Of a stretch of 64,000 nt of DNA, positions 32,646 through 45,900 are shown piece by piece. The stretch is from NCBI GenBank assembly GCA_965223865.1, contig OZ245020.1, forward strand, positions 480,001 to 544,000, in the 5' to 3' direction. This DNA comes from Nitrosarchaeum sp. (GTDB taxonomy: Archaea > Thermoproteota > Nitrososphaeria > Nitrososphaerales > Nitrosopumilaceae). The notes below the pieces were generated by a model. It did no database searches and was not told the origin of the DNA. It saw only the letters and a program-made list of their open reading frames with translations. The position numbers and the translations under genes were made by a program. Each line of letters begins with the position of its first letter. Within the stretch, counting starts at the first letter, position 1.

Positions 32646-35423
32646 TCAAGAAATCATTAATGAATTTAGTCTTCTCTTATCTTTAATATTTTTAACATAA
32701 AACAAAGAAGTTGCAATAATTCCTAATGCAATTAATGGTGATGCAATCTCTGTATATTTTAGCTCAATTCTGCTGGTAGGCTCTACAGTTGATGCTATAC
32801 TTGGAATTTCAGTAATCTTTACCATTGCTAATTTGTTGCCTTGTTGCTCTACAAACCAAACATTGTCATTGGTATCTGCTGTTGTAAATTGAGCAAATGA
32901 GGTTACAGTTGGAATTGGAACTTCAATTAGATCATCATTGTCTGGATCATAAGCTCCAATACTATCTACGGTATGTTGTGCAAACCAAATATTCCCATAT
33001 CTATCAAATGACATTCCATATGGTAATGCCTCTTGATTTGGTACGGGAATTCTCTCAAAGGTCTCTAAAATTGGATTAAATTTTGCTATGGCTAATCCTG
33101 TATGCTCTGCAATCCAGAGACTTCCATCGTCATCAAAAAGCAAGGCTTCAGGTGCCCCTAGCGGGATACTTGGAGCAAATTCTTTGATACTATTATCTTC
33201 TGGATTGATATAGCCAATTCTTCCTGTTTTGGATTCTGTAAACCAAATCTTACCGTCTTCATCAATTGTTAATGCAAATGGAAGAGATTCTTTTTCAGGA
33301 AGACGTACCTCTTCAAATGTTTTTTCTTTTTGATCATACTTTAGAATGACATCTTTATTGATTATGGCAATCCAGATATTGCCTTCAAAATCAGATTGAA
33401 TAAAGGTACCAATATTATCTGAAATGATTGGTTGAATCTTTGGCAGAGTAATAGTTGAAATTTCATTTGTTTTTGGATCAATGTATCCTATTTGATTTCG
33501 GGGAGTATCTGTAAACCAAATCTTACCTTCATTATCCTTGGTTAGAATCATAGTAGTTAATCCATCAAAGGAAAACGATTCAAACTCTTCTGACTCTAAA
33601 TCAAATCTCCAAATTTTTGGTGCAGAAGGATCACTGATCCAAATCGAATTTTTCCCATCAAACAATGGGTATAGAGGTTTTGCTGATTCTGGTAATTCAT
33701 ATTCACTTATTTCAGTTTGAAGATCCATCAATCTTGGTTTGATTAACAGCATTAACAAAACTGATTCATTTGCATTCTTAGTTCGTTGTGCTTCAACTTC
33801 TACTTGCCACTGTCCAGAAAATCCAAACGTTAACTCTCCTTTGAATTCTCTTGGTCCTTCTTCTTGCTCAGTTGTTTCGATAGGAATCTCTATTGGTGAG
33901 ATATTTTTTTGAGGATTTGAAATTTTTATTTTGAGTTCATTAGAATCATAAAGTGAATTATTTTCAAAGTCACTTACTTTAACAAAAATTGAATTTGTTC
34001 CACTGGTAAATGGAGTAATTTCAATATCAAATCTTGCATTTTCTGTGTATTCTATTGTTCTAAATCCATATGTAATATCTTGTGCATCTGCTTTTTGAAT
34101 TTCTCCTGCAGGCAATGTGCCATTTGCCAATAAAGCAACAACACCTAGTAGGATAATTCCTAGTGACGCATCAAACTTTAATGATCTCTTTAATTTTTTA
34201 TGGACTGAAATTGATTTTGATTCCAGAGCCTTCTCTCCTGCTTTTTGAACTCTAAACTGAAAGAATCCTCCCAACCCTACCATAACTGCAGCAATTGCAA
34301 TCTTTGCTATGATCAATTTTCCATATGTGGATTCAGTAATTATTCCAACATCACTTTCTAGGAGCCACATTAGGGTTGGCCCTGAAATTATTACAATTCC
34401 TACGGCAATCACAAATGCAATGGAAAATCTTGGAATCATTACCAATGACATTTTCTCCATTTTTATTTTTTCGAGTCTTGAAAATGTTGGAAGTAGCGTA
34501 AAGACAAAGTAAATTATTCCTCCTATCCATACTGCAGCAACCAAATTGTGTACATAATCAAGGACAACTGCTGCCATTTGGCCACTAGCAGCGCCATGTC
34601 CTATCATAGTTGAGGTTCCAATCAAAACTAATGATAAAACAAGCATTGGGATGTAATTGTACTTTGTAATCTGTTTTTTCCTGTCCATCCAAAACCAAAT
34701 TCCAAGAAGCATTACAGTAATTATCATTCGAATAAGCCAAGAAGTACCAAATGTTGTTTGGATAGCCTCGATTGCAGAGGTTTCTAATCTCAAAGTTTGA
34801 ACTGCAAGCATTATAATGTTTGAGGCAAAAACTAACATCAAGCCAATTCCGGTAATGGTCATAAATCGCCCATGATGAACAGTGTCGATTTTTTCAAACT
34901 CTTTTCTGATTAACTCTTTGTTTTGTGTTCCCCAAATTAGCAGAGATGCAATTACAGAACCTAGAATAATTGTTTGTCCAACAAGTCCAGGAAATCTAGC
35001 TCCTGCTTCTGGAAAGAACAATAACTCTGATGTAGACTTTTCAGAAACATCAATGTCAATCTTGACATCTCCTACTGCAAAGATAAAAGCACCATCTACC
35101 AAGTGACCATCAACTTTAGAGAGTACTTTGCTTGTTCCAGTATAGACTCCCTCTTCTAATGGTGGTGTAGTGACAATAAGAGAGGTTTCACCTTCATAAT
35201 ATCTAGTGTCCCTATTGTCAATTTGATCACCATTACTATCATAAATTTTCAAAGAGCTAAAATCTAATTCTACAGGTTCTGAAAATATAACGTAAACTTC
35301 AGTAATTCCTACAGGTGCATTAAGTGAGGAACTTGGATTTGTCTCTAGTGTAAATGGATGAGCTGAAGCATATGGAATCCCAATTGCTAAAATTAAAAGA
35401 AAAACAAATAGAAATTTTCTCAT
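32646..35423 (-). CDS. CopC-CopD fusion copper uptake protein with a C-terminal Vgb-like beta-propeller
   Basis: ASA|HPF and SKVDGH (CopC); GHGAA and HNLVAAVWIGG (CopD); repeated G.IWFT propeller blades. Confidence 0.9.
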   Translation of the reverse strand: MRKFLFVFLLILAIGIPYASAHPFTLETNPSSSLNAPVGITEVYVIFSEPVELDFSSLKIYDSNGDQIDNRDTRYYEGETSLIVTTPPLEEGVYTGTSKVLSKVDGHLVDGAFIFAVGDVKIDIDVSEKSTSELLFFPEAGARFPGLVGQTIILGSVIASLLIWGTQNKELIRKEFEKIDTVHHGRFMTITGIGLMLVFASNIIMLAVQTLRLETSAIEAIQTTFGTSWLIRMIITVMLLGIWFWMDRKKQITKYNYIPMLVLSLVLIGTSTMIGHGAASGQMAAVVLDYVHNLVAAVWIGGIIYFVFTLLPTFSRLEKIKMEKMSLVMIPRFSIAFVIAVGIVIISGPTLMWLLESDVGIITESTYGKLIIAKIAIAAVMVGLGGFFQFRVQKAGEKALESKSISVHKKLKRSLKFDASLGIILLGVVALLANGTLPAGEIQKADAQDITYGFRTIEYTENARFDIEITPFTSGTNSIFVKVSDFENNSLYDSNELKIKISNPQKNISPIEIPIETTEQEEGPREFKGELTFGFSGQWQVEVEAQRTKNANESVLLMLLIKPRLMDLQTEISEYELPESAKPLYPLFDGKNSIWISDPSAPKIWRFDLESEEFESFSFDGLTTMILTKDNEGKIWFTDTPRNQIGYIDPKTNEISTITLPKIQPIISDNIGTFIQSDFEGNIWIAIINKDVILKYDQKEKTFEEVRLPEKESLPFALTIDEDGKIWFTESKTGRIGYINPEDNSIKEFAPSIPLGAPEALLFDDDGSLWIAEHTGLAIAKFNPILETFERIPVPNQEALPYGMSFDRYGNIWFAQHTVDSIGAYDPDNDDLIEVPIPTVTSFAQFTTADTNDNVWFVEQQGNKLAMVKITEIPSIASTVEPTSRIELKYTEIASPLIALGIIATSLFYVKNIKDKRRLNSLMIS

Positions 35424-35472
35424 ATTATTTTCATTTTACAACTCTTAATTTAAACAATTTAGATTTTGTTCG

Positions 35473-36162
35473 ATGATTGTACCAAATCTAGTAAAGATAA
35501 TAACGTGTTACAATAAAATGATAGTCGTGAATGTTTTAATTTTTGGATTAATTGCAATATTAATTTCTGCAGGGATTACATCTCAAGCCTTTGCTCATAC
35601 TACAGTTCATGTTGAACAGTATGAAATTGAAGTAGGTTGGGGAATAGAACCACCCATTGTTGAATATAGAAATGATTTTGTTTTTGAAATTAGTGAACCT
35701 GGAGAAAATCCAGGAGTTAAAATTGGAGTAAAGAATGCGTTTAAGAATTTAGAAGCAACTGCAAAATTTGGTGGTGTTACTAAAATTTTAGATATAGGCT
35801 CTGATCCAAGACCAGGTCACTACTTTTCACACGTGATTCCAACAAAGACAGGCTCAATTTCAATACTATTAGAGGGAGAAATTAATGGAGTTCCAGTAAA
35901 TATTGATATTCCAGTTGAAGATGTTGAGACAACTGCAGTTTTAGATTTTCCTCCTACTAGTGGTTCATCTTCAGATCAAGATGTTTCAGCTTTGAAAAAT
36001 GCAATATCTCAACTACAAAGAGATGTTTCAGAAATTAAGACAGGTTCTGGAATCGAAGTCAAATCAGATACTGGTGCAGCATATGACTTTGCCGTTCTTG
36101 GTCTATCAATTGGTGCAGCGGCAATTATCTTAGCTGTTATTGCTTTAGTAAAAAGAAAATAG
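35473..36162 (+). CDS. Secreted membrane-anchored protein with predicted N-terminal His (start probably GTG about 35527)
   Basis: AFA|HTTVH; EVGWGIEPP, PGHY, DFPP; C-terminal TM + KRK; divergent from copCD. Confidence 0.8.
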   Translation: MIVPNLVKIITCYNKMIVVNVLIFGLIAILISAGITSQAFAHTTVHVEQYEIEVGWGIEPPIVEYRNDFVFEISEPGENPGVKIGVKNAFKNLEATAKFGGVTKILDIGSDPRPGHYFSHVIPTKTGSISILLEGEINGVPVNIDIPVEDVETTAVLDFPPTSGSSSDQDVSALKNAISQLQRDVSEIKTGSGIEVKSDTGAAYDFAVLGLSIGAAAIILAVIALVKRK

Positions 36163-36177
36163 AAAAAGAGTGAATTC

Positions 36178-37065
36178 CTAAAGTCTTGGAATAACTCTAG
36201 ATTTGGCAGTTACTGCTATGATGCTTATGATTGAAACAGCGAGTATCATCATTGCAATTGTTCCAAATTCAGGAACAACGTTTGAGAATACTACTTCTTC
36301 ACCAATTGGTCCAGTTTTTTCATCTACACCATACCCTTGGAAGGTAATGGTAACATCTACTGGATCAGAGGAATCAAGAGCTTGTGTCATGTGTGATCCT
36401 TTTCCCTCATGGTGATGTGCACCCATATCATCTAGCACTGTATTGCCATTTTGTGTGACTTTGATGTCATGATTGACATGTTCTGAATCTTCGAATACAA
36501 CATTGATCTCCATCATTTCACCAGCAGTTGGTGCAGAGGTCCAAATTGAAACAGTTGTACCGTCTGACAACATTCCTGTTGCTGTTGCATCACCTTCCAT
36601 TTCCATCATTTCACCGTTGTCCATATGCATCTCTTCGTCATCGTGTTCGTCTTTCATTTCTTCAGCACCTGCTTCCTGAACAACTACAATTCCTTGCATC
36701 CATGGATGAACCATGCAGAAGTAGTCGTAGTTACCAGGTTCGTAACCGTCGAACTTGACAGAAAATGTAGATCCTGCCATGAACAAGCTACTATCAAATA
36801 GACCATCAGGTCCATCAGCTGGAGTTCCAGATGTTACAGTATGTGCTGCAGTGTCATCATTTGTCCATGTGACTTCACCACCAACATCGATTGTTACCTC
36901 GTATGGAAGATAACATTCGTTTGTTTCTTCACATCCTGGAACTGAGGTACCTGCAGGAGTACTAACAGTTGCAGTCGGATGATCTGCAAAAGCAGGATTT
37001 GCTGCAGTCACTCCAGCTACAATAGCGAGTAATACGAAGAGAGAGCCTATAGCTATAGTCTTCAT
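36178..37065 (-). CDS. Plastocyanin-like blue copper protein with a His/Met/acidic linker and PEFG-CTERM
   Basis: WTNDDTAAHTVT and YFCMVHPWM type-1 Cu ligands; AHHHEG; VPEFG tail. Confidence 0.93.
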   Translation of the reverse strand: MKTIAIGSLFVLLAIVAGVTAANPAFADHPTATVSTPAGTSVPGCEETNECYLPYEVTIDVGGEVTWTNDDTAAHTVTSGTPADGPDGLFDSSLFMAGSTFSVKFDGYEPGNYDYFCMVHPWMQGIVVVQEAGAEEMKDEHDDEEMHMDNGEMMEMEGDATATGMLSDGTTVSIWTSAPTAGEMMEINVVFEDSEHVNHDIKVTQNGNTVLDDMGAHHHEGKGSHMTQALDSSDPVDVTITFQGYGVDEKTGPIGEEVVFSNVVPEFGTIAMMILAVSIISIIAVTAKSRVIPRL

Positions 37066-37187
37066 TAGATCTTGTACTTGTTCGGATACATAAAAACCTC
37101 ACTGGCATTTTCAGGTTGAATATTCCACTTTCTTTAGTACAAGTTCTTAAAGATAACAAGAGATCGTTAGAATACGTGGAGTAAAAT

Positions 37188-37325
37188 CATAATTGACTTA
37201 AAAATCTATGACTGGATCTTCATTATTCCTTCTTTGATCAAGAATTGTATTCCTTGAACAAAGGAGTTATCATCAATGTAGCCATTTGCCCACCAGCCTG
37301 CGTTGTTCTTAATCCATTCAGGAAT
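37188..37325 (-). repeat. 138-bp inverted repeat, left copy (partner 40639-40776)
   Basis: One mismatch; covers the [12 protein letters not shown] module, stop codon and 18 nt of 3' flank. Confidence 0.95.
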
Positions 37326-37964
37326 AGTCATTTTTGTATCATTAGGTTGCAATATTTCTATATTGTCCATGTCGACTACTTTGATGGCATCCTCAAAGTA
37401 ATTTTTTACAGCATTTCTCCTTTCATCCCATATGTTGGTCATTATTGTAATATTGTTCAATACTGTTGTTGGCTCAAACTCAAAAATTATAATCTTAAAC
37501 CCATCTTCATTTTCTGCACTAATATTCACCTTTCGTAAAAGGTTATCATCATCATAAATACCGATTATTTTATCATCAAATTTGTTATCCCATACTAAAT
37601 GAGCTACGGATTTCTCTACTAGCACACCACTTATGAGTTCTTCATATGGTGCAAAATGTAATTCTACATGAGAAACGGCTGTTGCACCTTCGTTTTCAAA
37701 AATTTTTAACATAATTGTAGTTTTTCCATCTTTGTTTAGTATTTGGGTTGGAATAGTCTGACTATAATGATCCACATCAAAAGATACAGAGTTAATTGAA
37801 AGGCCTGCTCATGGTAGTGGAGGATGTGGAAGTGATTGTACACCTCCTACACTAGGTGTAGACAAAGATGGCAGAATTAGAGTAGAAGGAGCATAAGCAG
37901 ATGTGACCCCAGTTATTGTAATTAATAATGCTATAACTATACTTACAAGAATTTTTATTTTCAT
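37206..37964 (-). pseudogene. Secreted IPxWI-repeat protein interrupted by an 88-bp internal inversion
   Basis: ATG 37964 signal peptide is in frame with the 37775-37206 ORF; the single stop (TGA 37811-37809) lies inside the inverted segment 37806-37893; flipping it gives a stop-free 252-aa ORF. Confidence 0.85.
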
Positions 37965-38000
37965 TTGTTTCTTCTAATCTTTTTTTGTAATTTAAACAAA

Positions 38001-38023
38001 TGGTATATTTGAAGCTTGTACCA
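38001..38023. promoter_or_regulatory. Candidate operator TGGTAT-N11-GTACCA
   Basis: Matches the sites at 46972 and 50071; lies just upstream of the TTTAAA box of the 37964 gene. Confidence 0.5.
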
Positions 38024-38108
38024 CTATTTTTTAATCCAAAAAATAATTTCTCATAATACCATATGAAAAAATATAATCTATCTTTAGGTCTTAGTGGCAG
38101 TACTTTGA

Positions 38109-38933
38109 TTATGGACGTAAAATCTTGATAGTTTTTAGAATTCCAAATACAGGAATTCCAACATACATTCCAATATTTAGAAGAAGCATTGAGATTCCAT
38201 AACCCAAAACTTCTTGTTCAGAATCCATATTTACATGATTTAGAATTGATAGCGATGAAATCATTGGAGTCAGTGCAATTTTTACAGTCTCTTTGAATAA
38301 AGGACTTTGGCGTTCCATATCTGCAATTGCTGGTGAGAATGAATAGTAAAACTGATTGAATCCGGCCATAAATGAAGATCCAGATTCTGTTGCAAGAAGG
38401 TTGTTGTCTCTTAGTTCTCTTAGTTGTTGTACTTGTGGTGCCATTTCAGAACCATATGTTGCAGTAGCAATAAGACAACCTCCACCTGGAGGCTCTTCTG
38501 AACCGTTATTTACTGAAACTGATGGTTCAGCATTTGCTTGCCCAACTATAACATCAAAGGAAACAGTTTCTATAGGTATTGGTTGAAATAATATTCCCTC
38601 TACTTCAAAGTCAACTGAATAAAGACCTTCATCATTAAACTCAACGGGAATCTTTACAGATCCTAATGATGTGTGAGTAAGTGGAATTGGACCGAAAATT
38701 GTTCCTCCATCTTTGAACACTGTTATCCTATAATCGATATGCTCTTGAACTTTTTGTGTTTGCGGATTTATAAAATCAATATTCAGTCTTGTTTGCTGAC
38801 CTGGAACTATATCATCATAAGACAATTTCACATCTAGTGTTCCTTTATCAGTTGGCAAAGTTTCAGAATTTGTTTGAGCAAATGCAGGAGTAACTAAAAG
38901 TGGAATTAATAATAAAGCAATAAAATACTTCAT
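38109..38933 (-). CDS. Secreted CFI-box-CTERM protein
   Basis: Signal peptide MKYF...AFA|Q; GGGCLIATATYGSEMAPQVQQLRELRD...FYYSFSP + TM tail. Confidence 0.88.
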   Translation of the reverse strand: MKYFIALLLIPLLVTPAFAQTNSETLPTDKGTLDVKLSYDDIVPGQQTRLNIDFINPQTQKVQEHIDYRITVFKDGGTIFGPIPLTHTSLGSVKIPVEFNDEGLYSVDFEVEGILFQPIPIETVSFDVIVGQANAEPSVSVNNGSEEPPGGGCLIATATYGSEMAPQVQQLRELRDNNLLATESGSSFMAGFNQFYYSFSPAIADMERQSPLFKETVKIALTPMISSLSILNHVNMDSEQEVLGYGISMLLLNIGMYVGIPVFGILKTIKILRP

Positions 38934-39045
38934 GTGTTTTCTTTTTTTTAGACCATAAATAAAATTTGCATTTATTATCATTTGAAATACACACGCATGA
39001 GAATTCAATACCATCTTTAAATATGGAATTAGTTCAATTCAATCA

Positions 39046-40758
39046 TTGTACCAGTATACAATACTTTTTGCTCTATTGGCAATTAGCGTTCCATTTTTAG
39101 TAACAGATGCGTTTGGTCATGGACTAGGTGGTGATCAAGCTGAACCCTTATCCTTTGGTGACATGGAAGTTACAGTTAGAACAGAACTTTCACCATCTGA
39201 TATTACAGTAGGCGATATTGATGACATCAACATGAGTGTACGTTTCTTTGATACCATAACTGATGAAACTTTGGATAAGGTAACTTATAGAATCGAAGTA
39301 TGGCAAAGTGGTGAACTCTTAGCTAGAAATTTGTTTTATGACTTAGACGGTAAACTAGATGTTAAGATTAATCCAAAAACGGGCTGTGCTGAAGGTGAAT
39401 TATGGAAATGCACGGTATATGGAGGTTCTGAACATGTAACTGCACCAGGAGCATTATATGTCCATGGTGAAGCATGTGATGATACTAATTTAGATACTTG
39501 TGCTAGACCAACAATTACTGGTCCTTTGTTTGTGAAAGGGGGACTGTATAACATTAGAGTCGATATTGAAGGAGCCACTAGTCCAAAAACTGTTCTAGCT
39601 ACACTACTAAGCTATGATACTTTTGTTTCAGTTGCACAAGAACAAAACTTTATGTTTCAAACTGCAAATGCTGAAGAAATACCAGTAATTATTAAAACAT
39701 ACTATGATGATGTTGATAATTTTAAATTTGATGAATCAGACAACTCAATTTCATTTGATATGCCATTTGATTGGAGTCCAGATTATGTAGACTTGGTACA
39801 AGTAGTACATGAAGAAGTAAGAGTTCCAAAAACATTTATGCCATATGCAGAAGGAAAACAATTCAAAGGATATGTTAACGGTGTAGAAATCGATCAGAGG
39901 GCCTTACTTAACGATCCCTATTCATATGATGATACCAATATTGTTCATTTCCTAATTACAAACACTGAACTGCAAAAAATTAACGAAACGCTGGGACCAG
40001 ATAATTATGATAACCCAAAAATGGATTTGAAATTAGTTCCACTTGATGAAGTATCAAAAAGTTCAACTGAATTTTATCTAGTTGATACTACAAACTACGA
40101 GCAGGTCCCAACTACAGTGAATGTTTCTTGGGATGGAAGTTATGGTGCAGGAGATAATGTTCCGTTTGAAATAACATTCTTTGATGAAAACAGAGAATTG
40201 ATACGTGACATAAAATACGCAGTTTCATTTATTGATGAAAATAATCAGGAATTAGAAAGATTCACAGGAGATGATCCTCAAAATCCTGGTATTACTGCTA
40301 TAGAAGGAATTGATTATCAAAAAATCTTCATCCCTTCACAGGGTCAATACCGAATTGATATTCTAGTTTATGGAACAGGATTTGACTATGATCCAACCTA
40401 TGCTGGAATTGGTTCAGGAATTATTGAGATTGGACCTAGCCTTCCAAAAACTACACCATCTACACCTGAAGTACAACCACCTGCTGCAATTCCTGAATGG
40501 ATTAAGAACAACGCAGGCTGGTGGGCAAATGGCGACATTGATGATAACTCCTTTGTTCAAGGAATACAATTCTTGATCAAAGAAGGAATAATGAAGATTC
40601 CTCCAACGACACAAGGCGAAGGTGCTGGATCTAATGAAATTCCTGAATGGATTAAGAACAACGCAGGCTGGTGGGCAAATGGCGACATTGATGATAACTC
40701 CTTTGTTCAAGGAATACAATTCTTGATCAAAGAAGGAATAATGAAGATCCAGTCATAG
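39046..40758 (+). CDS. Secreted protein with predicted mature N-terminus HGLGG and two C-terminal [12 protein letters not shown] modules
   Basis: AFG|HGLGG; core shared with 31124 and 44335; duplicated C-terminal module. Confidence 0.85.
40488..40748 (+). repeat. Identical 111-bp direct repeat (40488-40598 and 40638-40748), period 150
   Basis: Exact nucleotide identity, including third codon positions. Confidence 0.95.
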
Positions 40759-40776
40759 ATTTTTAAGTCAATTATG
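40639..40776 (+). repeat. 138-bp inverted repeat, right copy (partner 37188-37325)
   Basis: Direct base-by-base comparison. Confidence 0.95.
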
Positions 40777-41503: not shown

Positions 41504-42424
41504 TCAACTCATCTCCCTAATTACAGCTTCAAAAATCATGGGAGGTTGTGAACCCACAATTTTTTCACTTTGCCCATCTGGTCCTACAACAAAAAATGTG
41601 GGTGTTCCAACAACACCATGAGCTAATGCTACCTTTTTGTTATAATCAACTCTTAATGCTTGTTGATTCCAAAAAATACATTTATCAAATTCATCAGCAT
41701 CCAAACTCAACCCATTTGCATATCCTACAAGTGCATCTAAACTAGCCCATCCATTTTGAACACCTGCATATTTTTTATTTAACACATCAAGATATTCAAA
41801 ATAACTTCCTTGTTCTTGAGCACAATAGGTTGCCTCAGCAGCAGATATCGAATCTTCACCTAACATAGGATAATCAATAACAAAGAATTTTGCAATACCT
41901 GAATTTATCAAATTCTCATCAAGTATTTTTTTTTCATGCAATAACCACTTTACACATTTCTCACATTGATGATCACTGAACATAATAATTGTAAACAAGG
42001 CATCTGTTTTTCCTTCAAATGGACCTGCATTACTTAAATCAAAACCTCCAATCATCAAATCTTCATTTGAAACCTCATTACTAGCTCCCACAGAAACAAT
42101 TCCTACTGAGATTAAATGTTGGATTCCATTAAGAAAATCTGCATCACCAATAGAGCCTTCAGCCCACCAGCCTGCAGTATTTTTTATCCAGGAGGGTATT
42201 TCATCTGATTTTTTATTTACTACAGAATCACTATCAACATGAATAATCTCTTCATTAACTAAAAATTCAATTCCTTTTACAAAATCTGCATCACCAATAG
42301 AGCCTTCAGCCCACCAGCCTGCAGTATTTTTTATCCAAGATGGAACATCTTGTGCAAAAACACTTGTTGTTACTGGAAAAACTATCAAAAAACTTAGAAT
42401 AATAAAATACTTCATAAATTTCAT
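41504..42424 (-). CDS. Secreted DsbA-like thioredoxin-fold protein with two N-terminal xPSWIKN modules
   Basis: FSDHQCEKC active site, AAEATYCAQEQG, GVVGTPTFF cis-Pro loop. Confidence 0.9.
   Translation of the reverse strand: MKFMKYFIILSFLIVFPVTTSVFAQDVPSWIKNTAGWWAEGSIGDADFVKGIEFLVNEEIIHVDSDSVVNKKSDEIPSWIKNTAGWWAEGSIGDADFLNGIQHLISVGIVSVGASNEVSNEDLMIGGFDLSNAGPFEGKTDALFTIIMFSDHQCEKCVKWLLHEKKILDENLINSGIAKFFVIDYPMLGEDSISAAEATYCAQEQGSYFEYLDVLNKKYAGVQNGWASLDALVGYANGLSLDADEFDKCIFWNQQALRVDYNKKVALAHGVVGTPTFFVVGPDGQSEKIVGSQPPMIFEAVIREMS
42134..42337. repeat. Identical 57-bp direct repeat (42134-42190 and 42281-42337)
   Basis: Encodes WIKNTAGWWAEGSIGDADF twice. Confidence 0.9.
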
Positions 42425-42552
42425 GCTGCTCTTAGTACTAAAAATACAAATCATAATTTCCATAAATGAAAATTATTCGATAAACATACTATACAATCAA
42501 ATCTGAAAATAATATTTGCACCTTTTATAGGAAAAAATTAGCTTATTATGCA

Positions 42553-44334: not shown

Positions 44335-45900
44335 TTGAAGAAAATATTCTATGTTGTAATTACTCTTTTTGTATTGTCCATTATGATATCATCAACCATT
44401 TCTTCTTCATTTGGTCATGGTGTTGGAAGTGAAACATTTCCTCCAGTTGATTTAGATGGTAAACTTGTAACACTAGAAGTTTCTTCGTCTACTAATAATC
44501 CTGAAGAGAGTAGTGACCAACAAATTTCTATCTCTATGATTGATTTTGATTCTAAAATTACATTAAGAGATGTTACTTTTTTGATTAAGTCAGAACGTGG
44601 AGAACAATTTCTGTTTGAAAAAGAATTTCAGGCTGATAATGGTTTTTTAGTCTTTAATTTTGTCTCAGAAGACACTGAAAAAATTCTGATTGAAGAAGAA
44701 AGTGGAGGTGATTTTTTTGGATCTTTATTGGGTCTTGAAAGTAGAAAAATAAATGTAATAGGACCAAGCCTTAGTGAAGGAGGACTTTACACCTTTGATG
44801 TTAGTATTCTTACTGCAGATGGCTATTCAAAAAAACTAGATAAACCCCTAGTGTTTAATGCCGGAATTTCAATTGCTCAAACAACCAAACACGAAATAAA
44901 TGATCCAAATTTTGGCAGTCAAACAATTGATGTAATAACATACTATGACGAAATCAATGATTTTAGTTACAATCCTAATTTAAAAGAAATAAAATTTTCT
45001 ATGCCATTTGAATGGAGTGAAACAAATGTTAATCAAACATCAGTGGTTCACGAAGAATTAGTAATACCAAAAACATTTGGAGATTTACTTGTTTCAGGAT
45101 TTTCAATGTACGTCAATGACATCAAATTATCTGATGATATTGTAACAATTGATGATTTTTTCTCTGAAGGTAGAGTTGTTCATTTTATTGTCAATCAAAA
45201 AGAATTATGGAATATTCTTGAAGAATACGAAAATCAAAATGGAATGAATTTTGTTATAAAGCCTAGTTCAGAGAAAATTCAGCTAAGCTCTGTAACAGAT
45301 AACGGACAATTTCGTTTACTTGTTTCATGGGAACCAGAAATTCTTAAATCAGATTCTCAAGCAAAAATTATTTTTGATATTACAGATATTTTCTTAAAGA
45401 ATAGACCTGTTGCTGTTAATTATGATTTTTCCATAACTCAAAATGAAAGAATTATCCATACACAAAGTGGTTTTAGTACAGATTCTAGAGATGAGCATAA
45501 TATAGCTAAATTTTTCATTCCTGAAGATGTTTCCGGTATTATTCATTTGAATTTCCAAAATTTAGATGATAACAATTTAGCAAAAACATCAATTCCTGTT
45601 GTAGTTGACCCTATTACAAATACAAAAAACACAATTGCAATTCCAGAATGGATTCGTAACAATGCTGCATGGTGGTCAGAAGAACAAATAGATGATAAAA
45701 CCTTCATTCAGGGAATAGAATATCTTATCAAAAATGATATAATTGTAATTCCAAAAACTGCTCAATCTGAGTCTGACACTAAAGAAATTCCTTCATGGAT
45801 TCGTAACAACGCAGGCTGGTGGGCTGAACAACAAATAGATGATGAAACCTTTGTCCAAGGTTTACAATACTTAATACAAAAAGGAATACTTCTTGTTTGA
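44335..45900 (+). CDS. Secreted protein with predicted mature N-terminus HGVG and two C-terminal IPxWIRNNA modules
   Basis: SFG|HGVG; FSMPFEW/VVHEE/VVHF core. Confidence 0.85.
   Translation: MKKIFYVVITLFVLSIMISSTISSSFGHGVGSETFPPVDLDGKLVTLEVSSSTNNPEESSDQQISISMIDFDSKITLRDVTFLIKSERGEQFLFEKEFQADNGFLVFNFVSEDTEKILIEEESGGDFFGSLLGLESRKINVIGPSLSEGGLYTFDVSILTADGYSKKLDKPLVFNAGISIAQTTKHEINDPNFGSQTIDVITYYDEINDFSYNPNLKEIKFSMPFEWSETNVNQTSVVHEELVIPKTFGDLLVSGFSMYVNDIKLSDDIVTIDDFFSEGRVVHFIVNQKELWNILEEYENQNGMNFVIKPSSEKIQLSSVTDNGQFRLLVSWEPEILKSDSQAKIIFDITDIFLKNRPVAVNYDFSITQNERIIHTQSGFSTDSRDEHNIAKFFIPEDVSGIIHLNFQNLDDNNLAKTSIPVVVDPITNTKNTIAIPEWIRNNAAWWSEEQIDDKTFIQGIEYLIKNDIIVIPKTAQSESDTKEIPSWIRNNAGWWAEQQIDDETFVQGLQYLIQKGILLV

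Follow-up and report, generated by a model that had tools for sequence, protein, structure and literature searches.

The gene considered here begins with a signal peptide, runs into unrelated codons and a stop, and then resumes in the same frame, which raises the question of whether a secreted protein of an archaeon is switched by DNA inversion, was broken by a single mutation, or only appears to be broken. The gene lies in a 64,000-nt stretch of Nitrosarchaeum sp. (GCA_965223865.1, OZ245020.1:480,001-544,000), the whole of which is referred to below as the window; window position 37806 corresponds to C1:517806. The initial annotation, made from the sequence alone, had proposed an 88-bp intragenic inversion and had offered a phase-variable switch, a one-off template-switch mutation, and an amplification chimera as alternatives. 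Among these three, the evidence presented below favors the one-off template-switch mutation.

Translation confirmed the interrupted reading frame. On the minus strand, the frame that opens at ATG 37964 encodes a signal peptide, MKIKILVSIVIALLITITGVTSAYA, which was called by eye, ends in AYA, and is similar to the signal peptides of the homologues P0003 and P0005 (...LLITTTGFSTAYA...). There follow 26 unrelated codons, PSTLILPSLSTPSVGGVQSLPHPPLP, starting with PSTLILP and leading into a TGA at 37811-37809 after a total of 51 codons, beyond which the same frame continues to a final stop at 37208-37206 (Table 1). This remainder contains a beta-sandwich module and one C-terminal helical repeat, and database record P0001 annotates just a 189-codon piece of it, from GTG 37775. 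Read in the opposite direction, the plus strand from 37798 to 37893 translates as ERPAHGSGGCGSDCTPPTLGVDKDGRIRVEGA, and the part from 37810 to 37890 encodes the conserved His/Cys motif of the family, HGSGGCGSDCTPPTLGVDKDGRIRVEG, comprising a His and Cys-x3-Cys-x-PPTLG, which normally comes after the signal peptide. As had been proposed, TGCTC and GAGCA at the two borders of the 88-bp segment are exact reverse complements, and flipping 37806-37893 yields a single open frame of 252 codons.

An open frame is by itself weak evidence of inversion, since 1109 flips also leave the frame open among 9,660 boundary pairs (a total calculated from the scan ranges). The inversion exceeds chance because of homology, in that the family profile finds the flipped piece on the opposite strand. 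When run against the whole genome, a 20-sequence family profile gave two separate matches in this gene, one on the plus strand at C1:517813-517890 (window 37813-37890; E 2e-8, covering profile positions 35-60) and one, interrupted by stops, to the remainder of the gene on the minus strand. The analysis supports a true in-place inversion whose flipped reading is the ancestral, functional one, and a truncation of the secreted protein by this event. An exact 8-nt inverted repeat also has one copy, TCCACATC (37771-37778), in the coding sequence downstream and the other, GATGTGGA (37823-37830), in the flipped segment; it would have been a direct repeat in the ancestral orientation, does not bound the segment, and is probably a chance occurrence.

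Table 1. Features of the broken gene, places of the helical repeat, and read contigs compared across the locus (window coordinates)
Feature	Position	Strand	Remarks
Start codon ATG 37964 and 25-codon signal peptide	37890..37964	-	Original orientation kept; translation
Inverted segment, best-fitting breakpoints, 85 bp	37806..37890	+	Family HMM, profile match, translation
Alternative 88-bp segment with TGCTC (37806-37810) / GAGCA (37889-37893)	37806..37893	.	Six equivalent flips
Premature TGA	37809..37811	-	Produced by the inversion; closes the 51-codon product
Remainder of gene, 200 codons, in frame with ATG 37964	37206..37808	-	Without further stops or frameshifts
Helical repeat	~37209-37331, 40483-40776, 42089-42352, 45616-45900		43 places genome-wide
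Run X1, record 1 (868 nt, depth 149)	37300-38163		Both junctions OFF, 0 other letters, 0 gaps
Run X2, record 11 (667 nt, depth 12.2)	37497-38163		Both junctions OFF, 0 other letters, 0 gaps
Run X3, record 17 (699 nt, depth 381)	37300-37994		Both junctions OFF, 0 other letters, 0 gaps
Run X6, record 27 (236 nt, depth 16.5)	37752-37987		Both junctions OFF, 0 other letters, 0 gaps

The orientation found in relatives identifies the window copy as the derived one. A database search with the downstream part of the gene returned five proteins among 46 candidates, namely the window's own 189-codon ORF (P0001) and four homologues, P0002-P0005 (45-73% identity). In each of these four, the N-terminal piece stands in the gene's own orientation and in one frame, in the order signal peptide, x-His-Gly, Gly-rich run, C..C.PPTLG, 14 residues, and IN..F.V..SQTIPTQ. 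We also searched 301 genomes of the family, 129 of which contained a match (four unpublished genomes count in this tally only). At 29 loci from other genomes (L031-L059), the N-terminal region was co-oriented with the gene in 29/29 cases and flipped in 0/29, with the Cys pair present in 26; 17 of these loci were recognized by a strict motif in the gene's own frame and 12 were read singly, including the three that lack the Cys pair. Two further loci, L060 and L067, were likewise co-oriented. Since all 29 loci and the four database homologues keep the gene's orientation, the window copy is a derived inversion. The event also looks recent, because all eight nearly invariant family positions in the segment (H, C, C, P, L, G, D, and V) are intact and the downstream 200 codons carry no additional lesion. 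The inversion therefore struck a functional gene.

Two scans for closer relatives gave no close ON relative (ON meaning that the segment reads with the gene) by which the upstream breakpoint could have been placed. A metagenome scan yielded only distant relatives (L060-L062, 25-40%), and a genome-collection scan yielded L067 (62%), L068 (47%, with the sequence of L031), and L069 and L070 (31-33%). L067, the closest homologue whose DNA was compared, comes from an 18.5-kb contig in a MAG that carries the label Phycisphaerales bacterium, and this contig is probably mis-binned, since all other members seen come from Nitrososphaerota. L060 (metagenome contig, ~1306-1720, 40% identity) is frameshifted after ...TDEKM, with the rest in another frame, which could reflect a sequencing error or another pseudogene.

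Within the genome itself, we considered and rejected gene conversion from an inverted donor paralogue, as the module and motif are single there. The other 27 genome matches of the 20-sequence profile all fall in the C-terminal repeat, leaving this gene as the genome's sole copy of the module. Five of the six other genomes of the genus contained no match to a 159-residue query. The same-genus homologue L054 (G004:C1:698497-701919, minus strand; 33% identity) has its N terminus ON, and its frame breaks at a conserved (I/M)WD motif to go on in the +1 frame through two WIKxNA repeats; it is a second copy of the family in the genus, broken independently. With five of six genomes lacking a match and the best G004 match frameshifted, the gene looks dispensable in the genus.

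We then turn to the orientation present in sequencing reads. For window 36000-40000, 23 runs were listed, none recorded as RNA, and four runs from three studies were compared over 37300-38400 using Logan contigs, which drop rare variants. The strain's form was OFF only, the interrupted arrangement of the window, in 4/4 runs at depths of 12-381 (Table 1). The four runs are identical to one another over 236-868 nt and may all hold one clone, so "fixed" here means fixed in that clone. Parts of the compared stretch are uncovered in X3 and X6 (38003-38113), which has no bearing as a finding. The sole opposite-strand joint, from 37805 to 37889, occurred in X1 alone. The contig that carries it is 151 nt long with depth 2, and its flank (37704-37805) differs at 7 of 102 letters (~93% identical). 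Considering these differences and that the genome holds no paralogue of the module, we attribute this contig to another, rarer organism that keeps the ON form. The check suggested by the initial annotation, comparison of reads with both orientations, was run on contigs and returned OFF throughout for the strain, and its other half came back empty: no same-strain ON form was present among the contigs of the four runs, in which rare variants could be missed. If ON molecules made up less than about a few percent of the strain, such contigs could miss them.

The extent of the inverted segment was assessed by scoring all 647 distinct open flips with an HMM built from 30 homologues. The highest score, 136.8 bits, went to an 85-bp flip of 37806-37890, which reads AYA-A-HG ... 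VEGGLS-IN and has equivalents at 37805-37891 and 37807-37889, with 2 bp of microhomology. The 5-bp repeat put forward in the initial annotation exists, but it fits the family less well as the site of the breakpoints: the 88-bp flip ranked 7th at 124.7 bits, 12 bits lower, and reads AYA-HG ... VEGAGLS-IN, with 15 residues from ..TLG to IN. We examined this spacer in 36 homologue sequences, 33 of which matched the regular-expression pattern, and it spans 14 residues in 30 of the 33, 12 in two, and 15 in one; by eye, it is 14 in L039, L060, and L067 too. The 88-bp flip also leaves no residue between the AxA site and the His, unlike P0002, P0003, P0005, L031, and L067, which have G, D, or S there (cleavage sites judged by eye). 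Furthermore, the relative's contig in X1 joins 37805 to 37889/90, with the placing uncertain by one letter, and not 37810 to 37888; its joint lacks the TGC predicted by the 88-bp model and fits VEGGL without the extra Ala.

These comparisons bear on a rival account in which the same one-off mutation flipped 88 bp between pre-existing TGCTC and GAGCA, the ancestor having read AYA-HG ... VEGAGLS. An inverted repeat of at least 5 bp at exact random breakpoints has P = 0.0078, which would suggest that the repeat had a part and hence that the 88-bp model is correct, and a longer exact microhomology should favor template switching or end joining. The 2-bp microhomology of the 85-bp flip is not above chance (at least 2 bp at random breakpoints, P = 0.18). 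Against the 88-bp breakpoints, a repeat of at least 5 bp touched a nearby alternative flip centre in 9.1% of simulated flips, and because the profile prefers the 85-bp flip by 12 bits, the 5-bp repeat may be coincidental. We consider the 85-bp model the probable one and regard the 88-bp flip as a less likely alternative that nevertheless retains some weight. A more elaborate template switch is also possible, with the stretch that was copied differing from the one it replaced.

A different reading is that the segment is a programmed, reversible intragenic inverton, in which a recombinase flips DNA between TGCTC and GAGCA and thereby gives the population ON/OFF control of a surface protein. In favor of it, the segment was turned exactly in its place and entirely within the gene of a secreted protein, where it introduces a premature stop and leaves all else untouched; a fully intact downstream frame would also suit a reversible element. 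Intragenic invertons that introduce early stops have been described, with one putative archaeal case among 42 archaeal data sets in the available text of Chanin et al. (10.1101/2023.03.11.532203). Like the present locus, the cases in that text include inversions wholly within a coding sequence, a premature stop, and a cell-surface target. They differ in that both orientations co-exist and that flipping is presumed to be driven by an invertase between inverted repeats (10.1101/2023.03.11.532203, in the portion available), whereas our locus has one orientation, a repeat of 2-5 bp, no nearby recombinase, and nothing conserved in relatives. According to accessible sections of another study (PMC9881135), the recombinase that catalyses a programmed inversion is usually encoded within the element or close to it, with exceptions that include some invertible regions without a nearby recombinase, and one systematic search demanded repeats of at least 14 bp.

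Our data weigh against such a switch on several counts. The repeat measures at most 5 bp, or 2 bp at the breakpoints given by the family profile, and no longer repeat was found flanking the segment. The initial annotation had noted that the repeat is just 5 bp and that no recombinase lies in the window, and both observations were borne out. The 99.98% complete genome gave 0 matches to PF00239, the serine recombinase being absent, and four matches to PF00589, none in the window; the nearest of these tyrosine recombinases, at C1:860764, is 343 kb from the site. The suggested check of whether orthologs keep the GAGCA repeat gave a negative answer: between 24-nt boundary zones of 19 homologue DNAs, the longest inverted repeats were 0-6 nt and reached at least 5 nt in 4/19, compared with 1622/5000 for random zones from the same genes, so that no boundary repeat is common to these homologues. 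The TGCTC/GAGCA pair is absent from both L067 (62% identity) and L068. DNA folding of 37790-37910 was ordinary (z = -0.65), and Rfam gave 0 matches at an E of 1 or better over 37000-38600. Together with the OFF-only form of the strain at depths of up to 381, a lone ON junction that belongs to a ~93%-identical relative, and a flipped state at 0/29 related loci, these findings speak against the phase-variable switch and make it very improbable.

The well-known fimS and hin switches have repeats of about 9 bp and 26 bp, respectively, and adjacent recombinase genes. The present locus resembles them in that DNA inversion could give ON/OFF control of a surface structure, but fimS and hin flip promoters or use dedicated sites with adjacent recombinases, none of which occurs here. 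Overall, the locus behaves like an intragenic inverton locked OFF, yet it departs from invertons in all four respects by which membership was judged, namely co-existence of orientations, repeat length, a nearby recombinase, and conservation in relatives. We think it very unlikely that this ammonia-oxidising archaeon has a true reversible inverton that uses a 5-bp repeat, depends on a distant recombinase or on recombinase-independent, replication-coupled flipping, and was almost entirely OFF when sampled. Should the switch exist, Nitrososphaerota would gain its first phase-variable surface gene, as far as our literature search showed.

The inversion might also be real and fixed but selected for a new function, exerted by a 51-residue secreted Pro/Ser-rich peptide or by the 189-residue remnant. 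The downstream frame is intact, the 189-residue ORF from GTG 37775 is called in P0001, and the antisense reading of the flipped piece stays open up to the border TGA. However, the remnant of this otherwise extracellular module lacks the signal peptide and the eight N-terminal residues that hardly vary in the family, an open antisense stretch of 26 codons is nothing unusual, the arrangement is found in no homologue (29 loci), and loss is indicated by the fact that the other same-genus copy examined is also broken; we give this proposal scant credence. As for an assembly error or an MDA-type amplification chimera not present in cells, of which short-microhomology inverted junctions are typical, it can be dismissed as having next to no chance, because both junctions were bridged exactly, with 0 differences, in independent k-mer assemblies of four runs from three studies at depths of 12-381, and the genome (4 contigs, 99.98% complete) is unlike a single-cell amplified draft.

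The explanation that we hold to be probably correct is a single, non-programmed, microhomology-associated inversion that created a pseudogene fixed in the strain, and not an on/off switch. The scar is an exact in-place reverse complement without gain or loss of bases, and its reversal restores a frame that scores 136.8 bits; it has short inverted microhomology of 2 bp (85-bp flip) or 5 bp (88-bp flip); and it is a derived state in one lineage, the relative with the ~93%-identical flank in X1 keeping ON. In this account, about 85 bp, most likely 37806-37890 and less likely 37806-37893, turned in place at the 5' end of the sole copy of a gene for a secreted beta-sandwich surface protein in this Nitrosopumilaceae-like archaeon. 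The His/Cys piece is now read backward as the 26 unrelated codons and TGA, so that the product can be at most a 51-residue peptide, perhaps accompanied by a 189-residue remnant without a signal. As far as the scar alone can tell, replication most likely switched its template from one strand to the other where a very short inverted microhomology was present (2 bp, or 5 bp with the 88-bp breakpoints), which would correspond to the inversion-only case of the four-point template-switch model. Alternatively, a break followed by reverse rejoining through microhomology-mediated end joining could leave the same scar.

Published template-switch mutations offer the closest parallels. In the accessible text of Loytynoja and Goldman (PMC5453318), one event covered by the four-point model inverts a fragment and does nothing else, and spacers become inverted when the switch is between strands; spacer inversion through intermolecular template switching inside yeast genes is likewise described in the available part of PMC8604942. 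To the extent covered by these portions, the cases on record (Ripley; the four-point model, PMC5453318; yeast, PMC8604942) share with ours an in-place reverse complement produced in one event, short inverted homology at the switch points, and a fixed difference between close relatives. The yeast cases (PMC8604942, available part) change 2-5 bp between arms of more than 9 bp, whereas our inversion spans 85-88 bp with arms of 2-5 bp, and here a gene was destroyed where in those cases a few residues were changed. Since the published cases in these portions are far shorter and have longer arms, the present inversion is atypical in size. Our best reading is that the locus holds an ordinary, though neatly resolved, inversion mutation.

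The protein that was lost belongs to a large family, in which 5326 representative proteins match at E ≤ 0.001 and 239 at E ≤ 1e-30. Searches of Pfam, NCBIfam, and PDB sequences with the family gave no credible match, and in a protein atlas the matches were all to unnamed Nitrososphaerota clusters and scored no higher than 0.86. In 14 long members that we scanned, the neighbours of the module were fn3 (3), TPR (3), DUF2341 and/or Laminin_G_3 (2), and NHL (1); five members had no Pfam match and one had weak matches only. An AlphaFold2 model of P0003 (20-row alignment; mean pLDDT 78.5, pTM 0.56) contained a confident beta-sandwich (blocks 41-200, pLDDT 85-98), two helical hairpins formed by WIKNNAxWW repeats, and a disordered Gly-rich N terminus. 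Foldseek matches in the PDB were confined to generic sandwiches of the Ig-like V-set and cohesin-like types (TM by target 0.45-0.62, best E 4.9e-5) and hence point to no specific function. The module of this family is an extracellular beta-sandwich, and its His/Cys motif is conserved.

The initial annotation had further described a "His1" protein. In histidine-brace copper proteins, the His is residue 1 of the mature protein. This description fails for the present family, because a residue precedes the His in the nearest homologues and many long members carry the module internally. The broken gene lies within a run of secreted copper/redox genes (window 32646-37065 and 41504-42463), and its neighbours include a 925-residue CopC-CopD-Vgb_lyase-like propeller fusion, a cupredoxin whose C-terminal anchor we take to be PEFG-type, and a DsbA-like thioredoxin. 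Our guess is that cells use the His/Cys motif on their surface for copper or redox chemistry. We also observed that a helical repeat of ~40 residues, IPxWIKNNAxWWxxGxIxDxxFxxGIQFLIxxGII, ends many secreted proteins of the genome, often as tandem pairs (Table 1). No Pfam model matched this repeat, which may be a cell-surface anchoring or binding module.

For annotation of the organism, these results mean that the locus should be recorded as a pseudogene of a secreted surface protein and not as a 189-residue cytoplasmic protein. The locus offers a clean, breakpoint-resolved example of a natural short in-place inversion in an archaeon, which is useful for the study of template-switch mutagenesis. 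It also calls for caution with short flanking repeats, since the 5-bp one here resembles a switch site although the family pattern sets the breakpoints 3 bp away. Finally, a large His/Cys beta-sandwich family found beside copper-handling genes may merit a separate study.
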